The notes beneath the pieces are model-generated. The model had not been told where the DNA came from and made no database searches. It was given only the letters and a program-made list of their open reading frames with translations. Below, piece by piece: positions 1 through 50,810 of a DNA stretch of 50,810 nucleotides (position 1 is the first letter of the stretch; each line of letters starts with the position of its first letter). This DNA comes from a virus. The stretch covers positions 1-50,810 of the IMG/VR virus record IMGVR_UViG_3300045988_054624; one strand, given 5' to 3'. The translations under genes and the position numbers were made by a program.

Positions 1-60
1 TGTTTCTTTTATCAATTTATTTTTACCTCGTCAAATATTTTTTTTCAATTTTTTTTCACG
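1..60 (-). promoter_or_regulatory. Conserved early promoter cassette (copy identical to 47112-47168 and to the window end 50771-50810); drives gene 50444..50722 across the genome junction
   Basis: Minus strand reads ...AAAATATTTGACGAGGTAAAAATAAATTGATAAAAGAAACACG; -35-like TTGACG, 17-nt spacer, TAAAAG. A 58-nt exact repeat of the copy at 47111-47168. Confidence 0.5.
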
Positions 61-225: not shown

Positions 226-735
226 CTACTTTTTTTCAGTGGAGCCGAACCCGCCTTCCCCTCGTTCAGTAGTTTCAAGGATTTCAACTTGTTCAAAATC
301 AGCATCGTGCTTGTGCCTGATGATAAGCTGACCTACTACATTTCCGGGAAGAAATTTGAACAAATCAGGAACCGCTACCGTTTCGCACGGCGAAAGCATG
401 ACTTTGAGTGATCCGGTATATTCAGGGTCTATGATTCCGATAGAGTTTCCGTAAACAAATGGTGTTTTAGACAGTCGTGAATTAGGCACAACTTCCACAT
501 AGTAACCGGCTTCCGGCTTTACATGAACGCCCGTATCAATCTTGATTTTGTAAATCCTTGATTCCTCGTGACTTAATAGCTCGCAATCCTCTCGCGTAAC
601 TATTTCAATTTCAAATCCGTCAGGTGTGACAAAGTACGTGTGGAGTGCTTTGATGTCATAACCAACGTCAGATTCATGGGCGCGGGTTGGCATCGCCGCT
701 CCCTTGTCTAGCTTTATTTTTATTTTCGCTTTCAT
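226..735 (-). CDS. dut: dUTP diphosphatase (trimeric dUTPase)
   Basis: Motifs VGYDIKA (motif I-like), NSRLSKT (RSS-like motif), GIIDPEYTGSL (GxIDxxYxGE motif). Confidence 0.85.
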   Translation of the reverse strand: MKAKIKIKLDKGAAMPTRAHESDVGYDIKALHTYFVTPDGFEIEIVTREDCELLSHEESRIYKIKIDTGVHVKPEAGYYVEVVPNSRLSKTPFVYGNSIGIIDPEYTGSLKVMLSPCETVAVPDLFKFLPGNVVGQLIIRHKHDADFEQVEILETTERGEGGFGSTEKK

Positions 736-2615
736 TTTTGTACAAATACTCGTTCTACTTTTCCATCAACTCTTTTTTGCTTAGTTTCCATGTCAAAGCG
801 TTTTTTTACTTGCTTTGAAAACTCAATTTTTGACATGGCGTGATGATTATTTGCCAAGCAATATTCAGCGTATTGATTATAAATTGCTGTAGTAGTTTGA
901 TTCTCAACTTGTAATTCCGGGTTTTCCTTGAAAAATCCTACAACCGGATTATTAGCTTCTTCAAACTCTTCAAGTTCCAATTTCACCTTTTCAGATTCGG
1001 TAAAGGCTTGATTTTCAAGGATTCTCTTTAATCCTTGAATGCCTAATTGAATTAGATATTCAATGTTTTCCGGCTCTCTCAATTCGTATTTGATGTACGG
1101 CCTAAAATCCGGGTCTTGTTTCGTGAAATGAGCCAAAAACGGAACGATGACTAGGCGGCGTTGAATGGCTCCGCCTCTATCTTTGATTTTCGGAATCTCA
1201 TTGGCTGAAAATAAAAGCTTGGCATAGTTGTTGAACTCAAACGGCCTTTCACCTTTCCGTTGAACTTGAATACGTTCTCCTGTGACTAGTTTTTTGAAGA
1301 TGGCTGAATTAGGAATGAAATTATCGTCAATGTCATCCCCTACGTTTGCCAGCTTGCCGAACAATTCAGCGTTTTGAAACTTCTGGTTGAGTTCCGACAA
1401 GTCAAGGGACGTGATGTTATTCTCTCCTAACAAGGTTTTCACCATATCAAGGAACGTTGATTTACCGTTGGAAGCTCCCCTTTCTCTCGAACCATCCCCA
1501 ACCAGCATGAACGATTTTCCAAGTTCGTTTCTCCGGTAGAAACAATATCCTATGGCTTCTTCAAGTAGTGATCTAATTTCCTTGTCATTGCAGGATAACT
1601 TGTCAAGCGTTGCATCTACCAATTCAGATTCCGCATGTGGATTGTAGTTGAAATCAATCTTGTTCGTGATGATGTACCGCTCTGAAAACGGAAGCAATTC
1701 ATCATCCAGAATGTTATAAATGCCATTCTTAAATGCAATCAGGTGTGCCGGTGATTGTTCCTTGTTGTCGCGTATTAAGATATTAAGGTATTCAAGCACT
1801 TCCGTTCGTTTGGCACGGTTCAGGTTAGGAATGTGCTGAATCATTTCCGATTCTATTTTTTCCCGACTGTCCACATAAATCCCGTTTTCGTAGATATGAA
1901 GCTGCCCGTTAATTTTCACAATACGCGCGTTGTTTTTCAGGTATTCGGAAAACTTGTCGAAAAGAAATGTTTTCCCGTTGAAAAATATCGGCTTGGAAAA
2001 GGCATCATCCCGCATGATAGTTTCAAGCTCGGATTGCCTCAACGGTTCAGCCAGTACGTACTTGTTGATTACTTCCAAACATTCGCGTGATTCATCAATG
2101 GAAAATCCGTTACTTTGAAGGGTGAGGATATAGTTAAACAATGATTGATTGCGTCCTTCTCCCTTTTTCATGTTCAGGAAGTCAAGCTTCGTCCTAACCG
2201 GAACGAAAAACCTAGGAACATCTTGAATGTCAGAAGAATCACGTAAAATCTCACGTTCTTTCCCGTCAAACTTTAGAATGGAATATGCGTTAGCTCCAAC
2301 CTTTACATCAGCCGTCAGCCCGCACGCCAGTTTTACACCTGTTCCACATCGTTTCACCTTGCTATTTTTGAACAGGATATGAACTCCGCGCGTTGTCTTG
2401 TAAACACGGCACTTCAAGTCTAAATCCTGAACAATTTTCAAAGCGGTACGGGCCTGCTCTGAATCGTCAAAGTCAAGCAAGATTGATTGCCCGTCTAGGA
2501 TTCCGGCGTATTCATTGAGGTTCTTTACTTCATCATAACTTCTTAGGTTTTCAACACCTTTGAACTTTTCCAAACATCGTTTATTTCTGGTTGCAACATA
2601 GCCTCGGAAAAACAT
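732..2615 (-). CDS. Primase-polymerase / SF3 (D5/P4-type) replicative helicase
   Basis: 627 aa; Walker A GDGSRERGASNGKST in the C-terminal half; large N-terminal primase-like region; SD GGAAGG upstream of the ATG. Confidence 0.75.
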   Translation of the reverse strand: MFFRGYVATRNKRCLEKFKGVENLRSYDEVKNLNEYAGILDGQSILLDFDDSEQARTALKIVQDLDLKCRVYKTTRGVHILFKNSKVKRCGTGVKLACGLTADVKVGANAYSILKFDGKEREILRDSSDIQDVPRFFVPVRTKLDFLNMKKGEGRNQSLFNYILTLQSNGFSIDESRECLEVINKYVLAEPLRQSELETIMRDDAFSKPIFFNGKTFLFDKFSEYLKNNARIVKINGQLHIYENGIYVDSREKIESEMIQHIPNLNRAKRTEVLEYLNILIRDNKEQSPAHLIAFKNGIYNILDDELLPFSERYIITNKIDFNYNPHAESELVDATLDKLSCNDKEIRSLLEEAIGYCFYRRNELGKSFMLVGDGSRERGASNGKSTFLDMVKTLLGENNITSLDLSELNQKFQNAELFGKLANVGDDIDDNFIPNSAIFKKLVTGERIQVQRKGERPFEFNNYAKLLFSANEIPKIKDRGGAIQRRLVIVPFLAHFTKQDPDFRPYIKYELREPENIEYLIQLGIQGLKRILENQAFTESEKVKLELEEFEEANNPVVGFFKENPELQVENQTTTAIYNQYAEYCLANNHHAMSKIEFSKQVKKRFDMETKQKRVDGKVERVFVQK

Positions 2616-2620
2616 TTCAT

Positions 2621-4300
2621 TTACCTTCCTACAAATTGATTTACGTTTCTTTTTGCCATAGAGATATAAAAATCACGGTCTAGTTTGTCAGGCACCTTCA
2701 TTCCGTTAATATCATCGTTGAGGATGAAGCAATTAGTTGATGTATTGGCGAACTTTTCAGGATTCCCGCCTTTCTTCACTTTGAACACTCCACCGTCACG
2801 TAAATCGTTGCTTGCGAAAACGCGCAAGGTCTTGTCATTCAGTTTTTTACTTCCGTGCAAGGCGTGCTCGTAGGAACCTGATATTTTCACAATCTTCTGA
2901 AACTTGATAAGCTCATTACATTCCCTGATTGTTTTTTCCACCGGTATTCCATCAACAAAATACTTTATTACCGCTTCATTCAGAATAGCCGTATCATAGT
3001 CAAGAGCGTCTTGTTTTTTCACTACCGCGCCTTTTGATTTGTAACTGCCATCAGCCGCAACAATGATGTAATTGTTCACGTCTCGCTGGATCACCTTTAC
3101 GAACTCGTCAAACTCAAGCACCATGCCGGTTCTTTCTTCCCATTCGTGACAAATGGCTTCCACTTGTTCCCGGTTATTCCGCAACTTCACCAGAATACCG
3201 TCCGTGTTAGATTGCACAATGTCACAATGCCCTTCCAGTTTTTCAATCAAATCCAGCAGCAGGAGTTGACCGCCTACTACTACGTTGTTCGACTGGCGAG
3301 GGTCATACAATGGGTTGAACTTGTCTTTCATGGCACCGTAGGTTCCATTCAATACAATTTTCAACGGTGCTTGCAATGGATTTTTTTCTGCCTTGTATTT
3401 CAGGCGTTGATGATAAATCTCTTCGTACTTTTTCGGGTCTGTCATATTCCGGCTTCCCCATCCGTATTTAATCATCAAACTAGGGTAGTAGCTTGCAACG
3501 TCCACGTTCAAAAACTGGCCTTCCTCAATGTAATTGTTCCGTGCTCCGTGCAGCCCTCCCCATGCGAAAATATGAGGCACTCCGGCTATATCAATTTTAA
3601 GCGATTTTTCATAGTTTCGGTTGATAGGGTTATCATACCAGCGTTTGACTTCATGATATTTTTCGAGTTTGAGAGAGTGCGGGTATTCAAGGTCAAACTC
3701 GTCGTCTCTTTTTTGTTTAACCGCATTCAAGATAACCGCTGACAACTGCACTTTCGTTTTGCTGATTAAATTAAGCGGTAAGTTGAACGCTTTAATCATG
3801 CTCATGTGAGCGTCAAACTCGGCTTTCCGCTTTAGGAAAATCTGCATGGTTTGCTGAACGTCATTGCGGCAATATTCAATCGTTTTCTGGATTTCATCTA
3901 TTGTCAATTTCCGGTCAAGATTGAAGTCAACGCCTGATTCTTTGATGTCATTTCCCATGAACCCCTCAAGCGTCTTCAATCCATGAAAACCTATCATGAC
4001 ATCGAAAATGTTGATATTCACATTCCTGAAAAGGTCCGTGAACTGCCAGCCCATACGATGTTTGACTACAATCCAATCATTCACGTCTTTTGGATTGAAT
4101 CCAAGCAACAAACCCTTGAAAATGTACTGGTCATATTGCCGGATGTTGAACCCGACGAATATTTCATTTTTATGTTGATGGTAGTATTGTTTCAACTTTC
4201 CAGCGTCATTCACAATGACGGTTTCAGATCGCCGTTGTGGGTTAATGATGACGCAAAGCCAGTCGTCCTTGAAGACTTCAAAGTCGATAAAATGTAACAT
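2621..4300 (-). CDS. Family-B DNA polymerase, phi29-sized, with 3'-5' exonuclease
   Basis: Exo I FIDFEV, Exo II FNIRQYD, Exo III YCRNDVQQ (phi29-like YxxNDxQ), motif A DVASYYPSLM, motif B KIVLNGTYG, motif C variant QSNTDGI. The probable true start is the internal ATG (MLHFIDFE...) with GGAGGT SD; the track start at 4333 is a GTG. Confidence 0.8.
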   Translation of the reverse strand: MLHFIDFEVFKDDWLCVIINPQRRSETVIVNDAGKLKQYYHQHKNEIFVGFNIRQYDQYIFKGLLLGFNPKDVNDWIVVKHRMGWQFTDLFRNVNINIFDVMIGFHGLKTLEGFMGNDIKESGVDFNLDRKLTIDEIQKTIEYCRNDVQQTMQIFLKRKAEFDAHMSMIKAFNLPLNLISKTKVQLSAVILNAVKQKRDDEFDLEYPHSLKLEKYHEVKRWYDNPINRNYEKSLKIDIAGVPHIFAWGGLHGARNNYIEEGQFLNVDVASYYPSLMIKYGWGSRNMTDPKKYEEIYHQRLKYKAEKNPLQAPLKIVLNGTYGAMKDKFNPLYDPRQSNNVVVGGQLLLLDLIEKLEGHCDIVQSNTDGILVKLRNNREQVEAICHEWEERTGMVLEFDEFVKVIQRDVNNYIIVAADGSYKSKGAVVKKQDALDYDTAILNEAVIKYFVDGIPVEKTIRECNELIKFQKIVKISGSYEHALHGSKKLNDKTLRVFASNDLRDGGVFKVKKGGNPEKFANTSTNCFILNDDINGMKVPDKLDRDFYISMAKRNVNQFVGR

Positions 4301-4301
4301 G

Positions 4302-5186
4302 TTAGTTACCTCCGAATAAATCTGGTTGTCCACCTTGTTTTACATACGCGAGAACTTTTTCAAGTTCCAATTTATTCATGCAATAATCGTACAGTTTAGG
4401 ATAAATTTCTTTTAAAGCTTTAAATCTTGAATCGTCAATATGAGCACCGAACATGCAGAACATGCAGCCCGTTCTTTTCATTCCCATGTCATACAGTTTG
4501 CAATATGGCAGATTGAAACGCTTAATGTACGCCCAAACGTCTTCATCCGTCCAAAAAATCATTGGTCTTGATTGCGGGTGCTTGGCATGAAAAGCGTTAC
4601 ATTCGGTTCTTAAAAAAAGTCTCCTTCGCAGATTGCTTTCGCTTGCCATTACTCCGATAAACGGCGTGCGGCCTGTTTCTTTTTCATACTGGTGGAATGG
4701 CCGTTTTTTCATAATCTCGCAACATTCATCTGAAACTTTGAACGGCGCATCCACAAGGAACTTCCACTTTTCAGCAATCTTGAAGTTTCCCTTTTCCGTG
4801 CCAAACCAGCGCAGTCTTTTTTGCTTTTCTGATTTTGCGTTCCGATATTGCCTGATATAAAGGGCCTGTTCTTTAGATACAACTGGATAACCCTTTTGTT
4901 CCAATACCTGTTTGAACGTCATTTTAGGACGGATCATCGTGACGTTTTCAGTCTGTTTGACAAACTCAACAATATCTGGATATTCCAAACCAGTATTTGA
5001 AAACACAGCCGGAACCTCTGGAAACATTGATCTGACTAAATGCAATAAAACGGTACTGTCTTTACCGCCCGAAAAACTAACATAGACTTGTCCGTTAAAC
5101 TGGTGATACCATTCAAAAATTAACTGTTTTGACTTTGTTATTTTATCGTCAAGCGTTGCGGTCAATAAATCGTTCTTTGTAGTCAT
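4302..5186 (-). CDS. PAPS-reductase-like PP-loop ATP pyrophosphatase (solo copy next to replication genes)
   Basis: PP-loop VSFSGGKDSTVLL; C-terminal Cys cluster CKLYDMGMKRTGCMFCMF. The track start 5252 (GTG) lies inside a GC hairpin; the internal ATG (MTTKND) at 5186 is more likely. Confidence 0.65.
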   Translation of the reverse strand: MTTKNDLLTATLDDKITKSKQLIFEWYHQFNGQVYVSFSGGKDSTVLLHLVRSMFPEVPAVFSNTGLEYPDIVEFVKQTENVTMIRPKMTFKQVLEQKGYPVVSKEQALYIRQYRNAKSEKQKRLRWFGTEKGNFKIAEKWKFLVDAPFKVSDECCEIMKKRPFHQYEKETGRTPFIGVMASESNLRRRLFLRTECNAFHAKHPQSRPMIFWTDEDVWAYIKRFNLPYCKLYDMGMKRTGCMFCMFGAHIDDSRFKALKEIYPKLYDYCMNKLELEKVLAYVKQGGQPDLFGGN

Positions 5187-5252
5187 TTCAATCTTTCGTT
5201 GTGAATAAGAGAGGGCGGCGTTACACCGCCCTCCCATTGTTACATGTTTCAC

Positions 5253-5741
5253 TTAAAACGGTATTTCTTCTGCGGTATCTTGAGGTTCCGACATATCAAA
5301 GATTTTTTCAATCTTGTATGTGTTGTAACCCTTTGCATCCTTGCCGTAATTAAGTTGATATTCTCGTTTACCTTCAATTTCTTCCATGATGTCCATGAGC
5401 AATAAATTATATTGTTTGAACGATTCGAACGAAACGGGCAAACTAGTGATGCTTCTCAACAATTCGTTGCATTTGTGAAGTCCAAAACCACTCGTCAACA
5501 CCTGATTCATGAAAATCATTTGATTTGTTAATTCTCCGGCTACTACTTTGAACCAGCAAGTAACCATCGGACTTCCCTTTTTACTTCGCGTTAATTCAAG
5601 TTTTGTAACCTTAACTTCATATTGACCGGGAGGAACTTCTTTGCGCTCTTGATTACCGCTTTCTACATTTTCAAGGTCATTTTTCAATGCCTCTGAATCA
5701 AATTCGTTGTCCCATTGTTCAAAATTAGTTGAATTGCTCAT
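5253..5741 (-). CDS. Putative ssDNA-binding protein (T7 gp2.5-like features)
   Basis: 162 aa; acidic C-terminal tail ending in Phe (SEPQDTAEEIPF), the hallmark of gp2.5-type SSBs; sits next to the Sak4-like recombinase. Confidence 0.35.
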   Translation of the reverse strand: MSNSTNFEQWDNEFDSEALKNDLENVESGNQERKEVPPGQYEVKVTKLELTRSKKGSPMVTCWFKVVAGELTNQMIFMNQVLTSGFGLHKCNELLRSITSLPVSFESFKQYNLLLMDIMEEIEGKREYQLNYGKDAKGYNTYKIEKIFDMSEPQDTAEEIPF

Positions 5742-9582: not shown

Positions 9583-9931
9583 GTAATCTACGCCAGAAGC
9601 CTTTCTTCTTTGGTGTTACGGGCGTTTCAGACATCGTAAACCTGTTAATAGAATCCCGTTCTGCCAAGTCTCGCATGAGGTTTAATTCCTCACCGCTTCT
9701 TACACAATCTGAACTCATATGAACCCTTTTCATGTCAGTATCTTTCAGCACTCTCTTATAGCAAGCATCAACGGCTTGTTTGCTGTAAGTTCTCTTGCGG
9801 CTTACATATCTTCCCGGACCTACCCGGTAATATGTCTTGCCGTCAACATAGATTGTTTCACGCTCTCTACCTGCCTCGGATTCCTGAATGAACGTTGACG
9901 CGATAATTATCAACAATAATGTCGCTTTCAT
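9557..9931 (-). CDS. Secreted small protein carrying a 22-aa motif shared with the TMP C-terminus
   Basis: Signal peptide MKATLLLIIIASTFIQESEA; EELNLMRDLAERDSINRFTMS matches the TMP segment EELNLMRDLAERDAINRYTMS (20 of 21 residues). Confidence 0.5.
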   Translation of the reverse strand: MKATLLLIIIASTFIQESEAGRERETIYVDGKTYYRVGPGRYVSRKRTYSKQAVDACYKRVLKDTDMKRVHMSSDCVRSGEELNLMRDLAERDSINRFTMSETPVTPKKKGFWRRLLEFIINPF

Positions 9932-10113
9932 TTTTTGTCTTTTAGATAGTTGTGAAACTTTTCGGAGTTGATGTAGTACGTGAATCTATCTGACATTTTC
10001 ACAGCACATCCGAACTCCAATATTCCCCGTTGCAATCCTATGCGAATAAATTGCTGGCTTACGCGCATTTGTTTAGCTGCTTCAGCAACGGACATTCTTT
10101 TCACATCAAACAC
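9928..10113 (-). CDS. HTH_17/excisionase-like DNA-binding protein
   Basis: MSVAEAAKQMRVSQQFIRIGLQRG, a helix-turn-helix typical of Xis/MerR-like small proteins. Confidence 0.45.
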   Translation of the reverse strand: MFDVKRMSVAEAAKQMRVSQQFIRIGLQRGILEFGCAVKMSDRFTYYINSEKFHNYLKDKK

Positions 10114-10347: not shown

Positions 10348-10467
10348 AAGATACTTTTACCGGGTAAGTATCTAAAAAATATGTTATCAGCCTCTTTCGC
10401 AATAATCAAGACTAAATTACGTATTTTTTAGATACTTTCTAACTTTTTATGATATAATCAAGATACT
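10348..10467. promoter_or_regulatory. Lysogeny switch: four AAGATACTT operator half-sites/palindromes and divergent promoters
   Basis: AAGATACTT at 10348 and its reverse complement at 10365 form a palindrome; further copies at 10430 and 10460; extended -10 TGATATAAT at 10450-10458 reading toward the repressor. Confidence 0.55.
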
Positions 10468-10478
10468 ATGGAAGGTAG

Positions 10479-10874
10479 GTGATTTATTTGAGCGTTGGAG
10501 CAACTATAAAAAAGTTGCGTTTAGAGAAAGGACTGACGCAAGAGGAACTCGGAGAGTTGCTAGGAGTAAAGAAAGCCGCCATCCAGAAATATGAAAGCGG
10601 CCATGTACAAAATTTGAAACAAAGCACGATAAGAAGGCTTTGCGAGATATTCGACAAAACGCCTTCATACTTTGTCTATGATGATTATGAATCATCCTTA
10701 GAACACATGTTACGGTCTCAAGTAGGGATGATAGAATTGTTTCAAAGGGCTTACGGTAAAGACTTTATAGAACTGGTAGAAATATACCTAGAATTGAGTG
10801 ACCGGAATAAGGCGAAGGTTTTAGAGTACGCCAATGACATTTCACTGTTACAATCTGTTACGGGCAAAAAGTAA
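10479..10874 (+). CDS. cI-like XRE-family repressor
   Basis: N-terminal HTH LTQEELGELLGVKKAAIQKYESG plus a C-terminal oligomerisation region; 131 aa. Confidence 0.7.
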   Translation: MIYLSVGATIKKLRLEKGLTQEELGELLGVKKAAIQKYESGHVQNLKQSTIRRLCEIFDKTPSYFVYDDYESSLEHMLRSQVGMIELFQRAYGKDFIELVEIYLELSDRNKAKVLEYANDISLLQSVTGKK

Positions 10875-10898: not shown

Positions 10899-11104
10899 GT
10901 GTCACAGATGTAACAGATGTTTCCTATATATTTATTATTTTTCTCAATATGAAATAAGATGGGAATAGTTTTTTTTCACTTTTCATGTGAAAATGTAGGG
11001 GAATTGGAAGTGTTACATCTGTTACACTGTTACATCAGGCATGTAAATCTTTGAAAATCAAATGTTTTAAGGTGTCACAGATGAAGAAAGGGAAGTGTTA
11101 CACA
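10899..11104. repeat. Array of TGT(A/C)ACAGATG motifs (region A) between repressor and integrase
   Basis: gtgtcacagatgtaacagatg (10899-10919), gtgttacatctgttacactgttacatc (11010-11036), ggtgtcacagatg (11071-11083), gtgttacac (11096-11104); the same motif family as at 38995-39398. Confidence 0.6.
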
Positions 11105-12126
11105 TGCGCAACACAAACGGTTATGGAAGCGTTATCAAATTGAGCGGCAAACGCCGCCGCCCGTATGCCGTAAGAATTACCTCCGGATGGACTGATGACG
11201 GAAAACAGAAGTATAAATACATCAGTTACCATCAGAAAAAATCGGAAGCTTTGCTAGCATTGGCTGAGTTCAACCGTAACCCACACGATATTGATGCAGC
11301 GCGTATCACATTTGCGGAAGTCTATGACCGCTGGAGTGAAAAAGAGTTCCGTACCTTGTCAGACAGTTCAGCAAAAACGTATAGGAGTGCATATAAACAT
11401 TGTGCGCCTCTGTACGGGAAGGTATTCAAGGAACTTCGCACTCAACATCTACAATCGGTCATTACGTCCATCGAAGCACCATCCATGAAAGAAACAACTA
11501 AGTTCCTTTTTCAGAAGTCTTACCGCTTCGCACTTGAAAATGATATTGTACAGAAAGATTATTCGCAATTCGTGAAACTTCCTAAGAAACCACCAGCTAA
11601 GAAAAAGGTTCCGTTCACCCCGGAAGAAATCAATTACTTGTGGGAAAACAAGGACGCGATAAAATATGCGGATTTCACACTTATCTTGTTGTACACGGGC
11701 ATGCGGATTGGCGAGTTGCTAGCTATCAACAAATCAGACGTTAATCTTGAGAAACGGTATATGGTAGGTGGGTCTAAAACTGACGCCGGTAAAGAACGGA
11801 TTATCCCACTTCACAAGCGTATCGTGCCATTGCTGGAAAAACGGATGAATGAGGCGGAAAATGAGTGGTTGTTTCCAAACAAGCGAGGGTTGCGTTTGCA
11901 ATATTCACCGTTCATGAAATACCACTGGCCTAATCTGATGCAGGACATCAAAGGAGATCACACGCCCCATGATACCCGGCACACGTTCGTTTCCAACATG
12001 GATAGGTTAGGAGTTCGGAAGTTGAATATTCAAAGGATTGTTGGTCACAAAGACGCAGACGTAACGGAACATTACACGCACAAATTGATTGAGGAATTGA
12101 TTGCGGATGTAGATAGATTAGATTGA
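11104..12126 (+). CDS. int: Tyrosine integrase with N-terminal arm-DNA-binding domain
   Basis: C-terminal catalytic residues RHTFVS...HKD...HYTH; N-terminal AP2-like arm-binding domain (RRRPYAVRITSGW...). The track start at 11095 is GTG; the ATG at 11104 has an SD. Confidence 0.8.
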   Translation: MRNTNGYGSVIKLSGKRRRPYAVRITSGWTDDGKQKYKYISYHQKKSEALLALAEFNRNPHDIDAARITFAEVYDRWSEKEFRTLSDSSAKTYRSAYKHCAPLYGKVFKELRTQHLQSVITSIEAPSMKETTKFLFQKSYRFALENDIVQKDYSQFVKLPKKPPAKKKVPFTPEEINYLWENKDAIKYADFTLILLYTGMRIGELLAINKSDVNLEKRYMVGGSKTDAGKERIIPLHKRIVPLLEKRMNEAENEWLFPNKRGLRLQYSPFMKYHWPNLMQDIKGDHTPHDTRHTFVSNMDRLGVRKLNIQRIVGHKDADVTEHYTHKLIEELIADVDRLD

Positions 12127-12390
12127 TAAGTTGTAACTTGCTTGTATATTGTTTGTATATTACAGCGAAAAATTAAGCTGAATTTAGACGTTCTTATTTT
12201 TTCGCTTAATGATTCAAACCCTTGTAAACATTGGATTTACAGCATGTCCGAATCGTCTAAAAAATAACAATGATTCTTCCATCCCAAGCATGGACATACC
12301 TTGATTATCAATGTTTTACGAGCTATTTGTATATTGCGCGTATATTTTAATTCACCACCTCGTTTTTGTTATATTTTACCACAGCATAAG
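12127..12390. other. Candidate attP region
   Basis: Non-coding; three direct TTGTATATT repeats (12141, 12153, 12323); lies between int and the twin terminators that end the late operon. This is the usual int...lysin prophage end arrangement. Confidence 0.3.
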
Positions 12391-12394
12391 GTAT

Positions 12395-12429
12395 TAAAAA
12401 ACCCCCTCACTACACCCGTAGTGAGGGGG
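12395..12429 (-). terminator. Intrinsic terminator (probably bidirectional)
   Basis: 11-bp GC stem CCCCCTCACTA...TAGTGAGGGGG preceded on plus by A7 (T7 on the minus strand). Confidence 0.6.
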
Positions 12430-12532: not shown

Positions 12533-12575
12533 TAAAAAAAAAGAACCTACCCGATGCCCCAACACCGGGTAGGTA
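12533..12575 (-). terminator. Intrinsic terminator after the late operon
   Basis: Stem ACCTACCCG...CGGGTAGGT followed on the minus strand by T9. Confidence 0.6.
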
Positions 12576-35843: not shown

Positions 35844-36356
35844 TCAATATTTTTTAATATCGTATGCTTTTGAATAAGCCGCAACTCCCCGCTGCATGAT
35901 ACGTAAAAAGTCCTCTCTTGAAAAGTCGGATAACCGATAAACTTCTTCCGGCTTCATTCCAAGCTGCTTTCCTATTTCCTTGACCGTCTTTCCGCTTGCA
36001 ATGAGGTTTTGAACAATAGCCTTCATTGGTTCAAGCTGGTGCGTTCCCCTTGCACGGTTGTGAGTAATGGTCCCGTACACGTCTTCCGCTTCGTCTTTGT
36101 GGTCTACTATGACAACGGGCACTTTTCCGTTGAGCTTGGTTTTCAGCGGTTCCCGTCCTGATACGGTCCAGCGGTGGAACCCGTCAATGATGGTAAAGTC
36201 TGGCCTAACAACAATCGGCAATGTCCATCCGTTAGTCAATATTGATTGAATAAGCAATTTGAGATTGTCTTCACTTACTACGTTAGGATTGTAATTATTC
36301 GCCTTCAAACGTGTTCGTTCAACTATTTGCACATTTGAGATTGGTTTTAATATCAT
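35844..36356 (-). CDS. IbrB/YbdM-like ParB-like nuclease-domain protein (copy 1)
   Basis: NYNPNVV...LLIQSILTNGWTLPIVV...IIDGFHRWT...KVPVVIVD...ITHNRARGTH; paralog of 41016..41534. Confidence 0.65.
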   Translation of the reverse strand: MILKPISNVQIVERTRLKANNYNPNVVSEDNLKLLIQSILTNGWTLPIVVRPDFTIIDGFHRWTVSGREPLKTKLNGKVPVVIVDHKDEAEDVYGTITHNRARGTHQLEPMKAIVQNLIASGKTVKEIGKQLGMKPEEVYRLSDFSREDFLRIMQRGVAAYSKAYDIKKY

Positions 36357-37441
36357 TTGTTCTTTCCTCCAAACACTTGAGCATACAAAGAACGGAAGGT
36401 TCGTTTTTTAGGGTCTCCACCAATCAAAGCTTGATAGACGACTTTATATGTTTTGTTATCCATGTACGAATTGTGCATCATGACAAACCGTTTATATTGT
36501 TTATAATTCATTTGTTGAGATGGCGTAGTGAATCGTTCGGGTTGATTGAATAATTCAAACACTTTTTCCTTGTAATCAGTATCATCTTTCCTTTGCTTCT
36601 TTCGACGGTAAAGCTCTGTATCAAAATACAACATTGCCATGTATGCGTTAGGTTCCCGCTTGCATATCTCGTTGAACAAGTCCGGGTAAAACTCGCACAT
36701 GTTGACGAGTGATCCTGCCGTGTCGATGCTGAAAAACTGCGATATTCGCATTCTGCCAAATCCTAAGCCGGTTCGGTACATGTGTTCATAGGCTATTGGA
36801 TATTCAAGCCCGTTGTCGGCTATGTACTTCCACACGTCCGTATCGGTCCAATCATAGATGGGATAGGCTTTAGCATGAATGGCCTGAAACACTGCAACGC
36901 CGTTCATTCTTTGAACACTCTCCGATACTCTAACGCCTATCATTTGAATCTTGTCTTTATTGACCCGCTCCATGAATGATTGATAGGTATCTTTCCTTGG
37001 TTTGAAAAGCGGGTGACTAGTGATTGCAAATGACGGCATATCTCTCACCCATACATCACGCTTGAACCTGTCCCAGCAAATGAAACTTTCATCATTTGTT
37101 AGAGCGTTAAAACAATTAAAATGTTTGCACTCAATCGCCCACCACCTGAACGGAACGCCTATGGACAACCATTGACGGCGAATATTCATCGTGACTTTTT
37201 CCACACATGGATAAATGGCTTCCTCGTCAATGAAATCCACTGTGAGAAGTGACTTGTCTATCTCTCCGCTCTGGCATAATTGAAAGACGAGATTGTTCAG
37301 GCAAATGCTATCCTTGCCACCTGAAACGCTTAATTGAACCGGTACGCCATTGGAAAAAATGTTTTTGATGCGCTGGCGTGCAGCGGTGACAACGTTAATG
37401 TCCGTGTAATGCTTTTTAATCAAGCGGTATGCACTCCCCAC
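36353..37441 (-). CDS. IbrA/YbdN-like PAPS-reductase-family PP-loop protein (copy A, divergent)
   Basis: PP-loop VSGGKDSICLNNL; 362 aa; Cys-rich central region. The same family as 39538..40671 and 41554..42840. Confidence 0.65.
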   Translation of the reverse strand: MGSAYRLIKKHYTDINVVTAARQRIKNIFSNGVPVQLSVSGGKDSICLNNLVFQLCQSGEIDKSLLTVDFIDEEAIYPCVEKVTMNIRRQWLSIGVPFRWWAIECKHFNCFNALTNDESFICWDRFKRDVWVRDMPSFAITSHPLFKPRKDTYQSFMERVNKDKIQMIGVRVSESVQRMNGVAVFQAIHAKAYPIYDWTDTDVWKYIADNGLEYPIAYEHMYRTGLGFGRMRISQFFSIDTAGSLVNMCEFYPDLFNEICKREPNAYMAMLYFDTELYRRKKQRKDDTDYKEKVFELFNQPERFTTPSQQMNYKQYKRFVMMHNSYMDNKTYKVVYQALIGGDPKKRTFRSLYAQVFGGKNK

Positions 37442-38003
37442 ATGACGGGCAAAGGATTGTGTTGACCGCTGCTGGTTCTGGCGGTGCTTCTTCCTGCGTT
37501 TCTTCCGATATGGGATTTCCCATATCTATAACTTGTTTAGTTTGTTTTGTTTGCACCGTTTCAGGAGTTAGAACGCCATAACTTTGAACGTCCTGCAACA
37601 CTTCTTCCGCATCTCGCATCAAGTTACGCAATACATCCTCGCTGAATCCAGCAACGTCAAAATCTCCTGTTGATGTAATTTCCGCTAGGTAGGTTTCGAT
37701 ATTTTCATAATCATCCGAACCAAGGGAATAAGTCTTGTTATCAGCCAGAATGAGCTTTTTCTTTTCAATGTCAGACAATCCGGATTTTCTATAGACCGCC
37801 GCATCTTTCATTCCCGCTCTCGTCATAGCTTCATGTAATCCATTGCCTATTAAGATATTATTATCTTCATCAATGACGATTGCCCGTGTTTGTCCAAACT
37901 GTTCAAGCGAGCGTATCAACTCTTTGATTTGTGTTTCCGTGTGCTTCCTCACATTCACCTCTAATGGTTTAAGGTCAGTTAGTTGTAATGTTTGAATGTT
38001 CAC
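37416..38003 (-). CDS. ParB N-terminal-domain-like nuclease with C-terminal zinc ribbon
   Basis: LKPLEVNVRKHTETQIKELIRSLEQFGQTRAIVIDEDNNILIGNGLHEA; C-terminal CPSCGEC. Confidence 0.55.
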   Translation of the reverse strand: MNIQTLQLTDLKPLEVNVRKHTETQIKELIRSLEQFGQTRAIVIDEDNNILIGNGLHEAMTRAGMKDAAVYRKSGLSDIEKKKLILADNKTYSLGSDDYENIETYLAEITSTGDFDVAGFSEDVLRNLMRDAEEVLQDVQSYGVLTPETVQTKQTKQVIDMGNPISEETQEEAPPEPAAVNTILCPSCGECIPLD

Positions 38004-38901
38004 GTTTCTTCCACCCTTTCAATGCAAAAAATAGAACTCCTACACAGAATGCAACACGGTAAATGCCTATTGTGCTCCAAAGCTCCACGATACCGATTTC
38101 TTTGAACACGCCCCAAAAGACGCATAGGAATACGGCAAGTAAAGTGCCAACACGCTTGTTGGCTACCTCGTGCATGGCAACGGCTATGCTGTCAATGGTA
38201 GAAGTCGTAACGGCCAGACATGCAACTAGTAAAAGTGCATTCATCAATCCGTTGAACTCGAACAGGCTCATGATGAAAATTAGAAACATGTACGCTCCGA
38301 AAAACGCCGTAGCATACCAGAACGGTTTGTTATCTTCGGCTAACTTGGCACGCTGCCACATTTGAATATCTCCGAATGGAGATGTAAGCAAGATACAAGC
38401 ACTCCACAAGGCCCACAAGATACCGCCGTCCGTAGTGACAACGTGCTTATGTATTTCCGCTCCTGAAAAAAGACCTGCTAGGATAATAACCGCAAGCGTC
38501 ACAAAAGTAATGATGCCTTGATACTTGTCAGTAAGAACGGATGTCAATAATCCTTTTTTGTACATGAGAAGGATAAAAAGCAATCCGATACACGTTGTTA
38601 TCCAGTAGTTTCCGATAATCTGATTCATGATATTGAGGTTGATAATCAGGCAGAACGCTTGAATGATGACGGCAAACGTTTTGAAAATCTTATTCTGGAA
38701 TAGATTTTCGGTGAACAATCCACGCTTGAAAAGCACACCGAACAATCCTAGCGTCAATGCGTTAGCAATGGCCCAAATGAGGAATGGAACGATACCACGT
38801 TCGATAGCGATTGATTGACCGATAACAAGTGATGAAGCCCAAGCCCAACTGAAAGCGATAGAAAGACCTAGAGAGAAAGATTTGTTCAAAAAAACATGCA
38901 C
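37975..38901 (-). CDS. Polytopic membrane protein (possible transporter)
   Basis: 308 aa with about 8-9 hydrophobic helices; the first gene downstream of the operator-controlled promoter at 38934-38958. Confidence 0.45.
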   Translation of the reverse strand: MHVFLNKSFSLGLSIAFSWAWASSLVIGQSIAIERGIVPFLIWAIANALTLGLFGVLFKRGLFTENLFQNKIFKTFAVIIQAFCLIINLNIMNQIIGNYWITTCIGLLFILLMYKKGLLTSVLTDKYQGIITFVTLAVIILAGLFSGAEIHKHVVTTDGGILWALWSACILLTSPFGDIQMWQRAKLAEDNKPFWYATAFFGAYMFLIFIMSLFEFNGLMNALLLVACLAVTTSTIDSIAVAMHEVANKRVGTLLAVFLCVFWGVFKEIGIVELWSTIGIYRVAFCVGVLFFALKGWKKREHSNITTN

Positions 38902-38933
38902 TCCTTTTTTTATAATGAATCCTTTGTATCAAC

Positions 38934-38991
38934 ATTATATCATAATAATAAGATACTTATGAAGAAAAAGGAGCGCAAAAAGATACTTTTT
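38934..38991 (-). promoter_or_regulatory. Repressor-operator-controlled leftward promoter
   Basis: Minus-strand extended -10 TGATATAAT (plus 38934-38942), identical to the repressor promoter -10; AAGATACTT operator copies at 38950-38958 and 38982-38990. Confidence 0.5.
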
Positions 38992-38994
38992 AAG

Positions 38995-39398
38995 GTGTAA
39001 CAGATGTAACAGATTAGGGTGGAATCATCTGTTACAGTAGATAAGGAAATAAAAATGAATGGGTTATAGTAAGAAAACGGTTGTGAAGTGTAACAGATGA
39101 GAAAATCATCTGTTACACCCTTAAAGCGTTAAATATTAGCGGATTGCGAAGAGGTGTAACGCATGTAACAGATAAAATGTATATATTTTCTTATTATATA
39201 TACATATATAAAAATATATAGAAATAATATTTTACTATATATAAATTATTTACATTAACTCTATAAAATATATAAGTAAGAAAGAAATAAGTGTTACATG
39301 TGTGACAGCATGAGATAACACTATGGTTTTTAATAAGTTAAAGGTGTAACAGATTGAAAAAACAATCTGTTACACATCTGTTACATCTGTTACACCTG
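38995..39398. repeat. Iteron/palindrome hub (region B): TGTAACAGAT(G) arrays flanking a TA-rich tract
   Basis: gtgtaacagatgtaacagat (38995) with an inverted partner atcatctgttacag (39023); perfect palindrome GTGTAACAGATGA-gaaaa-TCATCTGTTACAC (39088-39118); ggtgtaacgcatgtaacagat (39153); a 115-nt TA-rich tract (39175-39290); gtgttacatgtgtgacag (39291); GGTGTAACAGATTG-aaaaaa-CAATCTGTTACAC plus two more CATCTGTTACA copies (39343-39398). Confidence 0.7.
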
Positions 39399-39438
39399 CT
39401 GGAAAACGAGGGTTTTTTGCTTCGAGTGGATGATACGG

Positions 39439-39519
39439 TTTTCTAAAATTGCCCGTTTTTAGCCTAGGGGATGGCCCTAGAACGGGCTTTTACACCTCGT
39501 CCGGTACAAACTACCGGAC
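39439..39519 (-). terminator. Tandem hairpins/terminator downstream of IbrA-like copy B
   Basis: GCCCGTTTTTAGCCTAGGGGATGGCCCTAGAACGGGC followed on the minus strand by a U-rich stretch; a second stem GTCCGGTACAAACTACCGGAC. Confidence 0.45.
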
Positions 39520-39537
39520 AACATGTAAAACGCCTTT

Positions 39538-40671
39538 TTAGGCCCATTCTAGGCATGAAATATCAACCTTGCCTTGAGAGAACCCCAAACCCTTGCATGC
39601 GAAGTCATTTGTCAAAATGCACTTGCACACTCTTCTCCAAGACGGAACATCCCGTTTTTTCTCCATGAAATAATCTGCCTCGTCCGGTATTCCATCAGGA
39701 TAACCTTGACGTTTCCACTTGGAAACAAACTCGGTGATCTTCCTCCGGTAATTATCCCGTGCTTGTGGAAAACTCGTTTCGACGAGAAAGACGGCATATT
39801 GCTCCCATGTGAAATGACTAGGTTTCGTCAGGTTCTTAAACGCAACCGCTGAAGTTCCTCCGTAAATCCTGCCAAAGTTCACGCCATTGACGCGATTGAG
39901 CAACTTGCTCCACGTTTGAGGTTCAATTACCCTGTACAGTTTCAGATTGTTCAAGCCGCACGTGTGAAACGGATTCGCAACACGCATTTGATTGATTGTT
40001 AGTCCAGCCTTGTAAAACAAGTCATAAATGCAGTTGTAGTCCCATGCCATTTTCGCATTTGCCACCCACACATCAGACGTTTTCCAATCGTAGATAGGAT
40101 AAACCTTGTGAGCCTGTTTATCCTTGCCTACAATCCAGTCCACCATTCTAATTAACTTTTGACGCTCAAGGCTCTCTTCGGCTCGAATGCCAATCATGAC
40201 GGCGGTTTTCCCGTATTGACCGGCAAACCAGTCGCAAAAGTCATCCTGAACGGAATAATCTTGTTTTCCAACTTCAACGGCGAATGGACAATTATCCTCA
40301 TGTATCACATAAGGAAGTTTTGGTATCGTTCTGCACCACAGGGCCTTGTCTGGCTTGTGCCACGGAATCCAAACGGAATTGTCCATCTTGCAACCGCAAT
40401 TTGCACCAACCGGAAGACAAAGCCAGAAGCGGCGAATGTCGTTGAACCGTTCAAATGTTCGTGTAACGTAATCCGTTGTGTAACTGTATTGCGCTTCATA
40501 GTCCATATGGTACATTGCCAGTTTGTGAAGGAATCCATTTTCCTTCGCAAAATCATAGCAAAGATTAAGTAAAACACCGCTATCTTTTCCACCTGAAAAG
40601 CTTACAAGTACAGAATCGTATTCATTAAAAATCAAAGAAAGTCTGTTTAAGGCGGCTTGGTAAACGTTCAT
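39538..40671 (-). CDS. IbrA/YbdN-like PAPS-reductase-family PP-loop protein (copy B)
   Basis: PP-loop VSFSGGKDSGVLLNL; LAMYHMDYEAQY..TTDYVT; WLCLPVGANCGCKM...WIPW; close paralog of 41554..42840. Confidence 0.7.
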   Translation of the reverse strand: MNVYQAALNRLSLIFNEYDSVLVSFSGGKDSGVLLNLCYDFAKENGFLHKLAMYHMDYEAQYSYTTDYVTRTFERFNDIRRFWLCLPVGANCGCKMDNSVWIPWHKPDKALWCRTIPKLPYVIHEDNCPFAVEVGKQDYSVQDDFCDWFAGQYGKTAVMIGIRAEESLERQKLIRMVDWIVGKDKQAHKVYPIYDWKTSDVWVANAKMAWDYNCIYDLFYKAGLTINQMRVANPFHTCGLNNLKLYRVIEPQTWSKLLNRVNGVNFGRIYGGTSAVAFKNLTKPSHFTWEQYAVFLVETSFPQARDNYRRKITEFVSKWKRQGYPDGIPDEADYFMEKKRDVPSWRRVCKCILTNDFACKGLGFSQGKVDISCLEWA

Positions 40672-41023
40672 CTTCCCATTCTTCTATAATTTGTTGAGCA
40701 ATAGCATTAGCGGTGTTACGTTCGTCATCGGATAGCAGCCACCATGCTTCCCGGGTCTCGTCTTCTTTCACTCCGGCATAAAGGCAACACGCAGCTTGCC
40801 CCAGCCATGCCTTACGATTGACATTGACATTTGAAAAAACTTGTTCTGTTGATATTTTCCATCGTTTTTTAACTTCACGCATCCATCGTTGGCAAATGTC
40901 CGGTGAGGATAAGAGAGAGCGGGCCAGTTCTACACGGCCAGCCCGCCCCTCGTTTAATTCATCATACATTCCGCATTTGTAATCCTCCCATTCTTCGTAA
41001 TGATGAAATACTTGTTTAATCAT
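40625..41023 (-). CDS. Hypothetical protein inside the IbrAB-like array
   Basis: 132-aa ORF between IbrB-like copy 3 and IbrA-like copy B. Confidence 0.3.
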   Translation of the reverse strand: MIKQVFHHYEEWEDYKCGMYDELNEGRAGRVELARSLLSSPDICQRWMREVKKRWKISTEQVFSNVNVNRKAWLGQAACCLYAGVKEDETREAWWLLSDDERNTANAIAQQIIEEWEDERLPSRLKQTFFDF

Positions 41024-41534
41024 TTTCAGTTTCCCACGCTTGAGAAAATTCCTTGTCTTTGAACAATGAAGCTAATCCGGTTATTTGTTTCAGCCGCAAC
41101 AACTCTTCCGCATCCATGCCGATATTTTTCAGAATCCACGCATCCGACATGCCAGCCTCCACCAGTTCACCTACGATGTTGCTCATGAGTTCGATGGAAT
41201 GAGAACCACGGGCGCGGTTGTGCCGGATCGTCGAGGCCATTCGGTTTGAAATGTCCTTATCAATGACCACCACGGGCAGCTTACCGCCTTCACGGTCATA
41301 AATGTCCTGATGTGTCTTCATAATGGTGTAACGGTGGAAGCCGTCAACAATCTCATACTTGCCATTCTCCAGCTTGTAGCAGACAATCGGCATCGTATAG
41401 CCGTCTTCCAAAATGGACTTGTAGAGCAGCTTCATTTCCGGAGGTGCAACGCTGTTAGGGTTGTATGAGTTCGCCTGAATGTCTTCCAGAGGTACGGCGA
41501 TTACGTTATATACGGGGCTTGTAATGGTATTCAT
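41016..41534 (-). CDS. IbrB/YbdM-like ParB-like nuclease-domain protein (copy 3)
   Basis: SYNPNSV...LLYKSILEDGYTMPIV...IVDGFHRYT...KLPVVVID...IRHNRARGSH. Confidence 0.65.
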   Translation of the reverse strand: MNTITSPVYNVIAVPLEDIQANSYNPNSVAPPEMKLLYKSILEDGYTMPIVCYKLENGKYEIVDGFHRYTIMKTHQDIYDREGGKLPVVVIDKDISNRMASTIRHNRARGSHSIELMSNIVGELVEAGMSDAWILKNIGMDAEELLRLKQITGLASLFKDKEFSQAWETEND

Positions 41535-47059: not shown

Positions 47060-47088
47060 GTTGTTTTGTTTTCTATTGTTTAGGTTTT

Positions 47089-47170
47089 GAGGGGCGTTTC
47101 CCCTCGTGACGTGTTTCTTTTATCAATTTATTTTTACCTCGTCAAATATTTTTTTTCAATTTTTTTCGCT
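47089..47170 (-). promoter_or_regulatory. Early promoter cassette with 5' GC hairpin (GAGGGG-cgttt-CCCCTC)
   Basis: 58 nt identical to 1-58; the leader AAACCTAAACAATAGAAAACAAAACAAC-ATG lacks an SD. Confidence 0.5.
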
Positions 47171-49058: not shown

Positions 49059-49240
49059 ACCGTGAGGGGCGGGACGGTTTTTCTAAGCCGTCAAAAGCTT
49101 CTGGATAATCCGGACAGAACCCGGAATGTGGAGATTTACCTTGCAGCAGTTCTTCATTGTCATCATTCACTACGTAAATGATTGACAGGGGAATTGATGC
49201 GTAAAACGCAAGGCCAGCTAGTATTTTCAGAATAATCATG
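49042..49240 (-). CDS. Small single-pass membrane protein
   Basis: Probable start MIILKILAGLAFYASIPLSIIYVV after the leader ACAACAAAACAACCAAC; the promoter cassette lies inside the longer track ORF. Confidence 0.3.
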
Positions 49241-49256
49241 TTGGTTGTTTTGTTGT

Positions 49257-49332
49257 GGGAGGGCGTTCCCTCCCGTTGACAAGTTCCTTTTAACAATTTA
49301 TTTTCACTTAGTCAAATATTTTTTTTTTAGAT
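49257..49332 (-). promoter_or_regulatory. Early promoter cassette with 5' hairpin GGGAGGG-cgtt-CCCTCCC
   Basis: Minus strand TATTTGACTAAGTGAAAATAAATTGTTAAAAGGAACTTGTCAACG plus the hairpin. Confidence 0.45.
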
Positions 49333-49496
49333 TATTCATCATAGTGCCCGTCTGGATTGTCACAGGTGGCATGGTCCGCGTCATGTTGGCTGATTGCTTC
49401 CTCCAACTCAGCTATCATCCCCCAAGCCTCTACCGGCGTTACAACTTCCCCATTCACCCGGATGCAGCGGTCTTCTTCGTCGTATTCAATAATCAT
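49332..49496 (-). CDS. Small acidic protein
   Basis: Probable start MIIEYDEEDR; 54 aa. Confidence 0.25.
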   Translation of the reverse strand: MIIEYDEEDRCIRVNGEVVTPVEAWGMIAELEEAISQHDADHATCDNPDGHYDE

Positions 49497-50443: not shown

Positions 50444-50722
50444 TCAGAATTTAAAGCAGAAGTCGATGACTTGTTCGGTTCCCGGTTTCCGGGTATAAAC
50501 GATGAATCCGCAACGGCTCGCGTCCTTGTCTATCACAACGTCATTTCCGTCCGGCCCTCTCATGATTTCAATTCCCGCTTCTTCCAGCTTGTTGAAATGG
50601 AATAAAAGTTCATCCGCTTCATCATCCGGAAGTTCAAGAACGTCTTCCTGTGAAAGTTTCATTTCAGCACGGGCAATGATGCGGAGGCTTTCCATGTTGT
50701 CTTCGATTTTTTTAGTCTTCAT
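50444..50722 (-). CDS. Hypothetical early protein
   Basis: Probable start MKTKKIEDN after the leader CAACCACCAACCGAACCAACCACA; the track start (TTG at 50785) lies inside the promoter cassette. Confidence 0.35.
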   Translation of the reverse strand: MKTKKIEDNMESLRIIARAEMKLSQEDVLELPDDEADELLFHFNKLEEAGIEIMRGPDGNDVVIDKDASRCGFIVYTRKPGTEQVIDFCFKF

Positions 50723-50740
50723 TGTGGTTGGTTCGGTTGG

Positions 50741-50810
50741 TGGTTGTGAGGTGCCTTTCCCCTCGTGACGTGTTTCTTTTATCAATTTATTTTTACCTCG
50801 TCAAATATTT
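50741..50810 (-). promoter_or_regulatory. Early promoter cassette copy spanning the genome junction (continues at 1-60)
   Basis: Hairpin GAGGTGCCTTTCCCCTC; 50771-50810 is identical to 1-40. Confidence 0.45.

Follow-up and report, generated by a model that had tools for sequence, protein, structure and literature searches.

The window analysed here, the whole 50,810-nucleotide stretch of virus record IMGVR_UViG_3300045988_054624, includes two regions that carry arrays of the same short repeat, TGTMACAGAT, around an A/T-rich centre. They are named region A, located between a cI-like repressor gene and the tyrosine integrase gene int, and region B (38902-39537), located upstream of the late genes. 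Comparisons of the window with related loci suggest that both regions are, quite probably, iteron-type replication-origin arrays for the initiator-helicase of the phage, and that they are most likely read by the winged helix at the C-terminus of the phage's own primase-helicase. Origins of this kind, with iterons recognised by a winged helix in a superfamily 3 (SF3) initiator-helicase, are already known; the duplicated, near-antipodal arrangement with one copy between repressor and integrase, and a family-wide code that relates the hypervariable wing of this domain to the iterons, appear not to have been described before. The proposal provides a function and a candidate binding protein for the non-coding sequence that stands out most in this uncultured 50.8-kb gut phage, and the same module spans a large family of metagenomic gut Firmicutes phages with no characterised member.

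Two arrays of one repeat

The first 40 nt of the window (1-40) are identical to the last 40 nt (50771-50810), and the window is therefore considered a closed circular phage genome of 50,770 bp; the gene order runs on across the contig ends. A search of both strands of the whole window revealed 14 exact matches to TGTMACAGAT, as compared to a mean of 0.20 and a maximum of 1 with dinucleotide-preserving shuffles. Four of these copies are found in 10900-11082 and ten in 38996-39394, with none elsewhere in the genome, and the two loci are separated by 28.2 and 22.6 kb around the circle. When a looser pattern that includes degenerate copies was used, region B had 13 sites and region A about 9, while the other 50 kb had 13 scattered single matches. 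The sequence-only reading of this DNA had described at least eight copies of TGT(A/C)ACAGAT(G) in region B and a recurrence of the motif between the repressor and int; both descriptions agree with these counts, and the enrichment is indeed confined to the two loci. The sites and tracts are the following.

Region B
38995-39036, outer-left iterons: tandem plus-strand copies at 38996 and 39005 and an inverted, minus-strand copy at 39027
39088-39118, left dyad: GTGTAACAGATGA-N5-TCATCTGTTACAC, site centres 22 bp apart
39155-39173, plus strand, inner-left tandem pair: TGTAACGCAT (degenerate) and TGTAACAGAT, spacing 9 bp, 44 bp from the left dyad
39175-39290, A/T tract: 116 bp, 90.5% A+T, proposed DNA-unwinding element of origin B
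39289-39307, minus strand, inner-right tandem pair: TGTAACACTT and TGTCACACAT, both degenerate, inverted with respect to the left pair
39343-39396, right dyad and extra copies: GGTGTAACAGATTG-N6-CAATCTGTTACAC (39343-39375), then tandem minus-strand copies at 39376 and 39385

Region A and the genes at its sides
10479-10874, plus strand, cI-like repressor gene, 5' of region A
10843-10862, minus strand, outer-left degenerate pair, inside the 3' end of the cI-like gene
10900-10918, plus strand, inner-left tandem pair: TGTCACAGAT and TGTAACAGAT, 44 bp from the outer pair
10919-11007, central tract: about 90 bp, 74% A+T, with a small dyad, TTTTCAC-N7-GTGAAAA, within it
11008-11034, minus strand, inner-right tandem triple: inverted, spacings 9 and 8 bp
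11073-11102, right dyad: plus-strand site at 11073 and minus-strand site at 11093, bracketing the int ribosome-binding site
11104-12126, plus strand, int, 3' of region A

The two dyads previously quoted for region B are exact as they were given, and the tract between them that had been called nearly pure T/A falls within the only genome stretch that reaches at least 85% A+T over 90 bp (genome average, 57%). Both regions share a pseudo-symmetric plan consisting of a dyad, about 44 bp, a tandem pair, an A/T tract, an inverted tandem pair, about 44 bp, and a dyad, with the inner pairs inverted relative to each other. The site centres of region B are at 39092/39114 (dyad), followed after 44 bp by 39158/39167, after 128 bp of A/T-rich DNA by 39295/39304, and after another 44 bp by 39348/39371 (dyad), and additional copies are found on both outer flanks. 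Those of region A are at 10849/10859, then 44 bp, 10903/10912, then 102 bp, 11014/11023/11031, then 45 bp, and 11076/11099; its last site stops 1 nt short of the int ATG (11104). Megablast analysis of regions A and B against the GenBank phages gave no match.

The helicase wing and the array motif in relatives

This layout matches that of the origins of staphylococcal pathogenicity islands (SaPIs). In the published SaPI origins, an AT-rich centre is flanked on each side by two or more of the 6-12 iterons, those of one side in opposite orientation to those of the other; the C-terminal domain of the self-loading Rep helicase has a winged helix that recognises them (PMC9371898). The window encodes a protein of this type.

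732-2615, minus strand, primase-helicase gene: 627 aa, with prim-pol, D5_N, SF3 helicase and C-terminal winged-helix parts
744-791, segment encoding the hypervariable wing: residues 609-624, about 16 aa

Pfam matches of the primase-helicase are D5_N and DUF5906; a C-terminal Pox_D5 match scores just over the gathering threshold, and an RFX wHTH match, also at the C-terminus, stays below threshold. Its sole match in the PDB is SaPI5 PriRep5 (7OLA/7OM0, deposited as 'DNA primase', the structure of PMC9371898), with E = 1e-40 over residues 239-608. The AlphaFold model (pLDDT, the predicted local confidence score, 86.6) has a C-terminal helix at residues 596-607 followed by a β-hairpin formed by residues 609-616 and 619-626, which together would constitute a winged helix. 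As judged from sequence and model, the protein thus has the composition expected of such an initiator, a putative self-loading AAA+/SF3-type helicase with a C-terminal winged helix. Among 40 homologues, no stretch of 12 aa in the whole protein is as variable as residues 604-615, where the wing begins. Primase-helicase matches were found in 1,111 phage records, of which 498 are from Streptococcus, all below 60% identity, and 102 of these 498 name S. thermophilus as the host.

To the 80 IMG/VR loci encoding primase-helicase homologues that were fetched, others were added for about 90 related loci in all, designated here by L and a number. Modules were located with a structure-based detector that searches for an A/T tract with inverted flanks, k-mer counts being too noisy for the TTCAA type. 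The related loci, about 90, show the same architecture, and at least ten different motifs occur among them. Most loci that extend far enough carry the module about 2.4-5.5 kb downstream of the helicase gene, usually directly upstream of a gene for a sigma-like late regulator, and most relatives found via the helicase show one module, at the early/late junction. The helicase wing is the only protein segment that was found to co-vary with the motif, in the following pairs.

Wing IVDKK, IVDKW or IKDK: motif TTCAA[GC]
Wing TTDAR or VTDAK: motif GAACAGAT
Wing TTDSR: motif CCACAGAT
Wing TTMVK: motif TAACAGAT
Wing TTKTKK: motif GGTAACA
Wing ETKQKR (window) and TTKVKK (L206): motif GTAACAGAT
Wing VHKH: motif TTAAAGAT
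Wing EVSIVK: motif GGTTACGGTT
Wing VVQRK: motif GGTAGCGGTT
Wing EIAEKK: motif ACAACT

Helicases that are 92-97.5% identical outside the wing are found in pairs in which, yet, wing and motif differ. Between L188, with a wing of the type FIIVDKWISRLGKCRVF, and L175, identity falls from 97.5% in the rest of the helicase to 48% in the wing; TTCAA is the motif of L188 and GAACAGAT that of L175. L163 and L183 behave in the same way when compared with L175. L151 and L217, the helicases of which have an overall identity of 56%, have nevertheless a common wing core, KIVDKKIDGKK, and a common motif, GGTTCAAGAT. The pairing of wing and motif is not a matter of simple linkage, since the DNA of L188 and L175 from the helicase gene through 2 kb downstream, toward the module, is 80-91% identical, which leaves wing and module as two separate diverged patches. 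Cognate specificity of a C-terminal domain for its own iterons is in this way apparent in silico for at least ten wing/motif classes. Such a pairing, which occurs naturally in ten or more variants and in swaps between near-isogenic helicases, can be considered a code from which the specificity of a winged-helix initiator is read, and it could serve to predict replication compatibility, or interference among co-infecting phages and satellites.

Other features of the relatives were noted. The distant locus L226 (IMGVR_UViG_3300000062_000243, 11.9 kb; 828-5430) includes int, a GGTTCAAGG module about 180 bp upstream of int, and a distant D5-type helicase 1.4 kb away; it is compact and resembles a satellite or a replicon like the phage-inducible chromosomal islands. 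The perfect 18-nt tandem repeats near the early genes of L168 (2290-2570) and L212 (1-260) appear, as read by eye, to be coding sequence (roughly GDAKVWGNAKV) instead of DNA-binding arrays. L231 (11894-13509) and L232 (11891-13673) have a 1.6-kb gene-free stretch 3' of the helicase gene with sequences that by appearance are like tRNA clusters, on the opposite strand.

Proposed origin function, possible roles of region A and alternative readers

Region B is, from its sequence, the candidate canonical origin copy at the early/late junction, because it has the extreme A/T tract and the position typical of the family, at the end of the replication and nucleotide-metabolism genes and before the late genes. 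By analogy to SaPI Rep, hexamers of the primase-helicase would form on the arrays that flank the A/T tract, open this tract and self-load, after which bidirectional synthesis would be started by the phage DNA polymerase together with the primase part of the protein. Binding of the arrays, melting of the A/T tract, firing of the origin and the role of region A are what we infer. An origin composed of iterons and a DNA-unwinding element was among the candidate roles listed in the sequence-only reading, and it is the one that layout, helicase homology and wing-motif co-variation support.

The likeness to the SaPIs extends to several levels. As in SaPI5 PriRep5, of which the phage protein is a sequence homologue, a primase is fused to an SF3-type helicase with a C-terminal winged helix; in both regions short iterons flank an AT-rich centre with at least two per side in opposite orientation; and specificity would reside in the C-terminal domain and differ between elements. 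On the other hand, the phage iterons are of about 10 bp instead of the 5-6 bp of SaPI iterons, with 13 (B) and about 9 (A) sites, and they belong to a 50.8-kb temperate phage that has its own DNA polymerase and two modules per genome, one of them between cI and int.

The presence of one motif at two loci has precedents in other systems. In the satellite phage P4, ori and crr, which are several kb apart, contain one and the same octamer to which the alpha primase-helicase binds; crr consists of two 120-bp direct repeats, and the layouts of ori and crr differ from each other. The window and P4 thus share a single primase-helicase with a C-terminal DNA-binding domain and a short repeat that is the same at two distant loci, but the loci of the window have in common a symmetric plan with an A/T centre and are 22-28 kb apart on a 50.8-kb circle. 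The Bacillus phage SPP1 has distant origins, oriL and oriR, with common G38P boxes beside an AT-rich unwinding tract, and in having the same initiator boxes beside such a tract in two distant origin regions it is like the window; the site architecture differs, however, and G38P is a replisome organiser that recruits a DnaB-type helicase via a loader and not a self-loading SF3 helicase. Sfi21-type phages of S. thermophilus have a non-coding ori downstream of a D5-like primase gene and are similar, by description, in having a repeat-rich and AT-rich non-coding region after a replication module with a D5-type primase-helicase; we know of no second, int-proximal copy in these phages.

Modules with matching motif near int and at the early/late junction, the two-locus arrangement of the P4 type, were found in the window and in three other genomes, with four different motifs.

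This window: regions A and B
Logan contig ERR14044561_380: L229 and L141, motif TGTTACAC/CATCTGTTACA
The L147/L233 phage and its near-twin L232: motif TTAAAG[AG]
IMG/VR contig 164467: L004 and L098, motif AATTCAA[CG]

L004 and L098 have a 77-bp identical stretch, which is located upstream of two different genes; L098 was found among the matches listed in an IMG/VR scan for AATTCAAC-N0-1-AATTCAAC, a pattern that is too unspecific. These four genomes favour one trans-acting factor for both loci, which is the part that stands of the common regulator formerly proposed; the other part, that it is a transcription regulator linking lysogeny to packaging, gives way to the initiator-helicase as the likelier factor. 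The full plan of region A (outer sites, 44 bp, tandem sites, A/T tract, inverted tandem sites, 45 bp, dyad) was found in at least five lineages with different motifs. In L002, L003, L004 (2449-3000) and L016 (8425-9000) no cI-like gene is located between the early operon and int, and in L016 int diverges from the early operon, the first gene of which encodes an excisionase-like helix-turn-helix (HTH) protein, and the space between them is occupied by the iteron module.

Region A may be a second origin, a cis-acting enhancer or copy-control array like P4 crr, and/or a site that blocks int in lytic growth. Within the origin reading, the possibility that region B alone fires and that region A is an auxiliary array of the same initiator (a crr-like enhancer, a copy-control or handcuffing array, or an int roadblock) is a sizeable one, which we place a little below even. 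It is in keeping with the lower A+T content of the central tract (74% versus 90.5% in B), with the last dyad, which brackets the ribosome-binding site and start codon of int, and with the single module at the early/late junction of most relatives found via the helicase. An array that titrates or blocks would not need the whole origin plan, however, and this plan is kept in at least five lineages; its retention in several lineages is the argument for the origin competence of region A.

The conserved second copy ending at the int start codon suggests an undescribed link between replication initiation and integrase expression; alternatively, it may be related to in-situ replication of the prophage starting beside attL. 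A broader proposal, which we advance only tentatively and regard as rather unlikely in its full form, is that wing and matching arrays define exchangeable replication-specificity groups, comparable to immunity groups, that part of the family, this phage included, has acquired a second complete module between repressor and integrase, and that occupancy of region A by the initiator both fires a second, roughly antipodal origin near attL and shuts off the integrase. If true, the start of lytic replication would be coupled directly to the lysogeny module via region A.

Several observations weigh against the origin reading. On the circle, region B follows the helicase gene downstream at a distance of about 12 kb (region A is 8.3 kb upstream of this gene), as compared to about 2.4-5.5 kb for the module of the relatives and to the SaPI ori, which is immediately downstream of rep. 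The central tract of region A has just 74% A+T. Wings and motifs were sorted into classes by visual inspection of the outputs, with no statistical correction for phylogeny, and L226 has GGTTCAAGG (TTCAAGG) repeats but an unrelated wing, GLKSKAVKVNGRKF, in a different backbone. A non-cognate module can persist, because L192 (14640-15090), L221 and L173 (14353-14675) have two tandem modules, one of the TTCAA type and one of the AACAGAT type, and a single wing type that fits one of them; these loci look like recombination intermediates, or like a means of being replicated by a co-infecting relative. Finally, since the module of the relatives abuts a gene start (that of int or of the late regulator), a regulatory role may coexist with the origin function.

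A purely regulatory reading, in which the arrays are operators of a phage transcription regulator that co-controls the int and late or cassette promoters and the A/T tract is promoter DNA, we consider improbable. The module does adjoin the int start in the window, L012, L013, L016 and L004 and the sigma-like late regulator in L098, L153, L162, L164 and L211; a promoter-like GTAACA-17-TATTAT overlaps an iteron in region A, and the two genes preceded by the 77-bp stretch of L004 and L098 are different. No regulator co-varies with the motif as the helicase wing does, however, and a symmetric arrangement of 9-13 sites around a 90-128 bp A/T tract fits the plan of an origin.

Individual candidates for such a regulator were rejected. 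The sigma-like late regulator hardly differs between L188, L163 and L220, three phages each with a motif of its own, and no homologue of it was found in the window. The window, L012 and L013 have the AGATACT operators of the cI/cro switch in common but differ in array motif, which excludes cI or Cro as reader. The recognition helix of the excisionase-like HTH protein is invariant over all motif classes. This protein had been named 'HTH_17'; it has no Pfam match at threshold, although it does look like an excisionase-type HTH protein. An operator array for it or for a small AP2-like regulator, as had been suggested, is contradicted by the lack of co-variation with the motif; no small AP2-like regulator was found, and a tblastn search with the integrase N-domain returned nothing below E = 0.1.

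Region B is upstream of the late and packaging genes, TerS has an N-terminal HTH, and some pac sites are built of repeat arrays on either side of a central region. A pac or cos region bound by the small terminase, with repeats that flank the cleavage zone as in the P1 pac, is nevertheless unlikely, as far as the weak test made here goes: the distance from region B downstream to terS is 3.1 kb and four genes, a second full copy is beside int, and the motif tracks the helicase wing.

We give very little credit to the idea that the arrays serve the ParB-like (IbrB-like) proteins encoded nearby as a kind of centromere or as modification targets, although three ParB_N-like genes flank region B and GTGTAACA resembles a half-site of the canonical parS, TGTTNCAC-GTGNAACA. 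Homologues of ParB2 that are 72-83% identical are found without the motif in L008-L010, relatives collected by IbrA2 that are too distant for a comparison of the region itself; L142 and L148 keep the whole ParB/IbrA cassette with only 3 matches each to TGTAACA, the palindromic 7-mer core, and no array upstream; and phages of the L098 type have the module with no ParB gene among ten open reading frames scanned around it. The centromere role that had been listed for the arrays is contradicted by these ParB2 homologues without motif and modules without a neighbouring ParB gene.

That the motif is an arm-type site of the integrase, and region A the attP, is extremely unlikely. The integrase has a weak Arm-DNA-bind_4 match and region A is attP-like (tandem sites, a small central dyad, inverted tandem sites), but its N-domain, GWTDDGKQKYKY, is almost invariant while the arrays upstream of int have completely different motifs.

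L013: TTAACAGAT
L012 and L230: TTTACGGAT
L002 and L004: AATTCAAC
L016: ACAACTATTT
L231: TTAAAGAT

A separate conserved repeat, TTGTATATTG, directly downstream of int fits an attP better. It is found as two sets about 170-185 bp apart immediately 3' of int in the window, L012, L013, L005, L016 and L229, with variants in L003 and L006; the window copies are at 12143, 12154 and 12328, plus a degenerate one. The segment 12130-12355 is the likely attP, because the interval of about 170 bp between the two sets is conserved at 70-75% in L012 and L013. Terminator hairpins are located further downstream, at 12402-12429 and 12545-12574. A search for prophage junctions with the exact integrase protein returned only free-phage contigs, and no tRNA gene was found at int in any locus examined.

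Neighbouring elements and genome organization

The left edge of region B includes an operator and promoter system that is distinct from the arrays, and its right part includes two hairpins.

38934-38988, minus strand, promoter-like site: -35 at 38963-38958 and extended -10 at 38939-38934, TTCATA-18-TGnTATAAT
39451-39487 and 39499-39519, two G+C-rich hairpins, as read from the sequence, just past the stop codon of the IbrA-like gene 39538-40671

The promoter-like site (38963-38934) is flanked by two AAGATACTT operators, at 38950 and 38980, which are common to the cI/cro switch; AGATACT is found four times in the cI/cro intergenic region (10349-10467). Both the operator-controlled promoter and the separateness of AAGATACTT from the array motif had been recognised before and are upheld, AGATACT being constant in relatives in which the motif changes. 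The promoter and its AGATACT operators (38934-38988) belong to the downstream cassette of membrane, ParB-like and IbrA-like proteins and can be separated from the iteron module: in L142 and L148 the cassette is retained with no iteron array upstream of it, L147 keeps the operator-bearing promoter adjoining an iteron module with a different motif (TTAAAG), and the AGATACT-flanked arrangement is retained in both L141 and L147. Since the AGATACT of the cI/cro switch also flanks the cassette promoter, the operon is probably under direct control of the repressor or Cro. The upstream operon probably terminates at the hairpins at 39451-39519, which lie outside the iteron module; these hairpins were not flagged by a terminator scan, and the closest relative, L141, is without them.

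The cassette itself (35844-38901) consists of four genes encoding a 308-aa membrane protein, a ParB-like protein, a PAPS-reductase/IbrA-like protein and a ParB_N protein. It moves as a unit upstream of terS in L142, L143, L147 and L148, in which the terminases are quite different (SPP1-like, GpA-like). A homologue of the membrane protein with 45% identity is found in L144, a 3.17-Mb bacterial contig, beside Vut_1 and radical-SAM genes, a neighbourhood that hints at a precursor transporter role for this protein. In total the window has three IbrA-like paralogues and three ParB-like genes.

Nearly all genes of the window are on the minus strand. The phage is temperate, encodes its own DNA polymerase and is not a satellite.

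10321-10106, minus strand, Cro-like gene, start of the early genes
9928-10113, minus strand, excisionase-like HTH ('HTH_17') gene, early gene after the Cro-like gene
35844-36356, ParB_N-like gene, one of three flanking region B
37416-38003, ParB_N-like gene, the second of these
41016-41534, ParB_N-like gene, the third

The early genes continue with those for an SNF2 helicase, a PD-(D/E)XK/AAA_24 protein, SSB, DNA polymerase and the 627-aa primase-helicase (2615-732), past which small open reading frames extend across the contig ends to IbrA-like/ParB-like genes that end at 39538. Region B comes next on the minus strand, and beyond it are the cassette (membrane protein, ParB-like, IbrA-like, ParB-like), terS, terL, the structural genes and the amidase gene (12720). 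Rfam families had no match anywhere in the window, and the GC-skew profile located no origin; this profile is uninformative because it is uniformly negative, tracking the coding strand. An element of about 85 bp is present on the minus strand in three copies that are 76-96% identical (47070-47160, 49230-49335 and 50715-50810), upstream of early or middle genes. Its promoter-like part, TTGACG...TGATAAAAG, precedes a GAGGGG-N4-CCCCTC hairpin; the element may be a promoter with a leader structure that is present in repeated copies.

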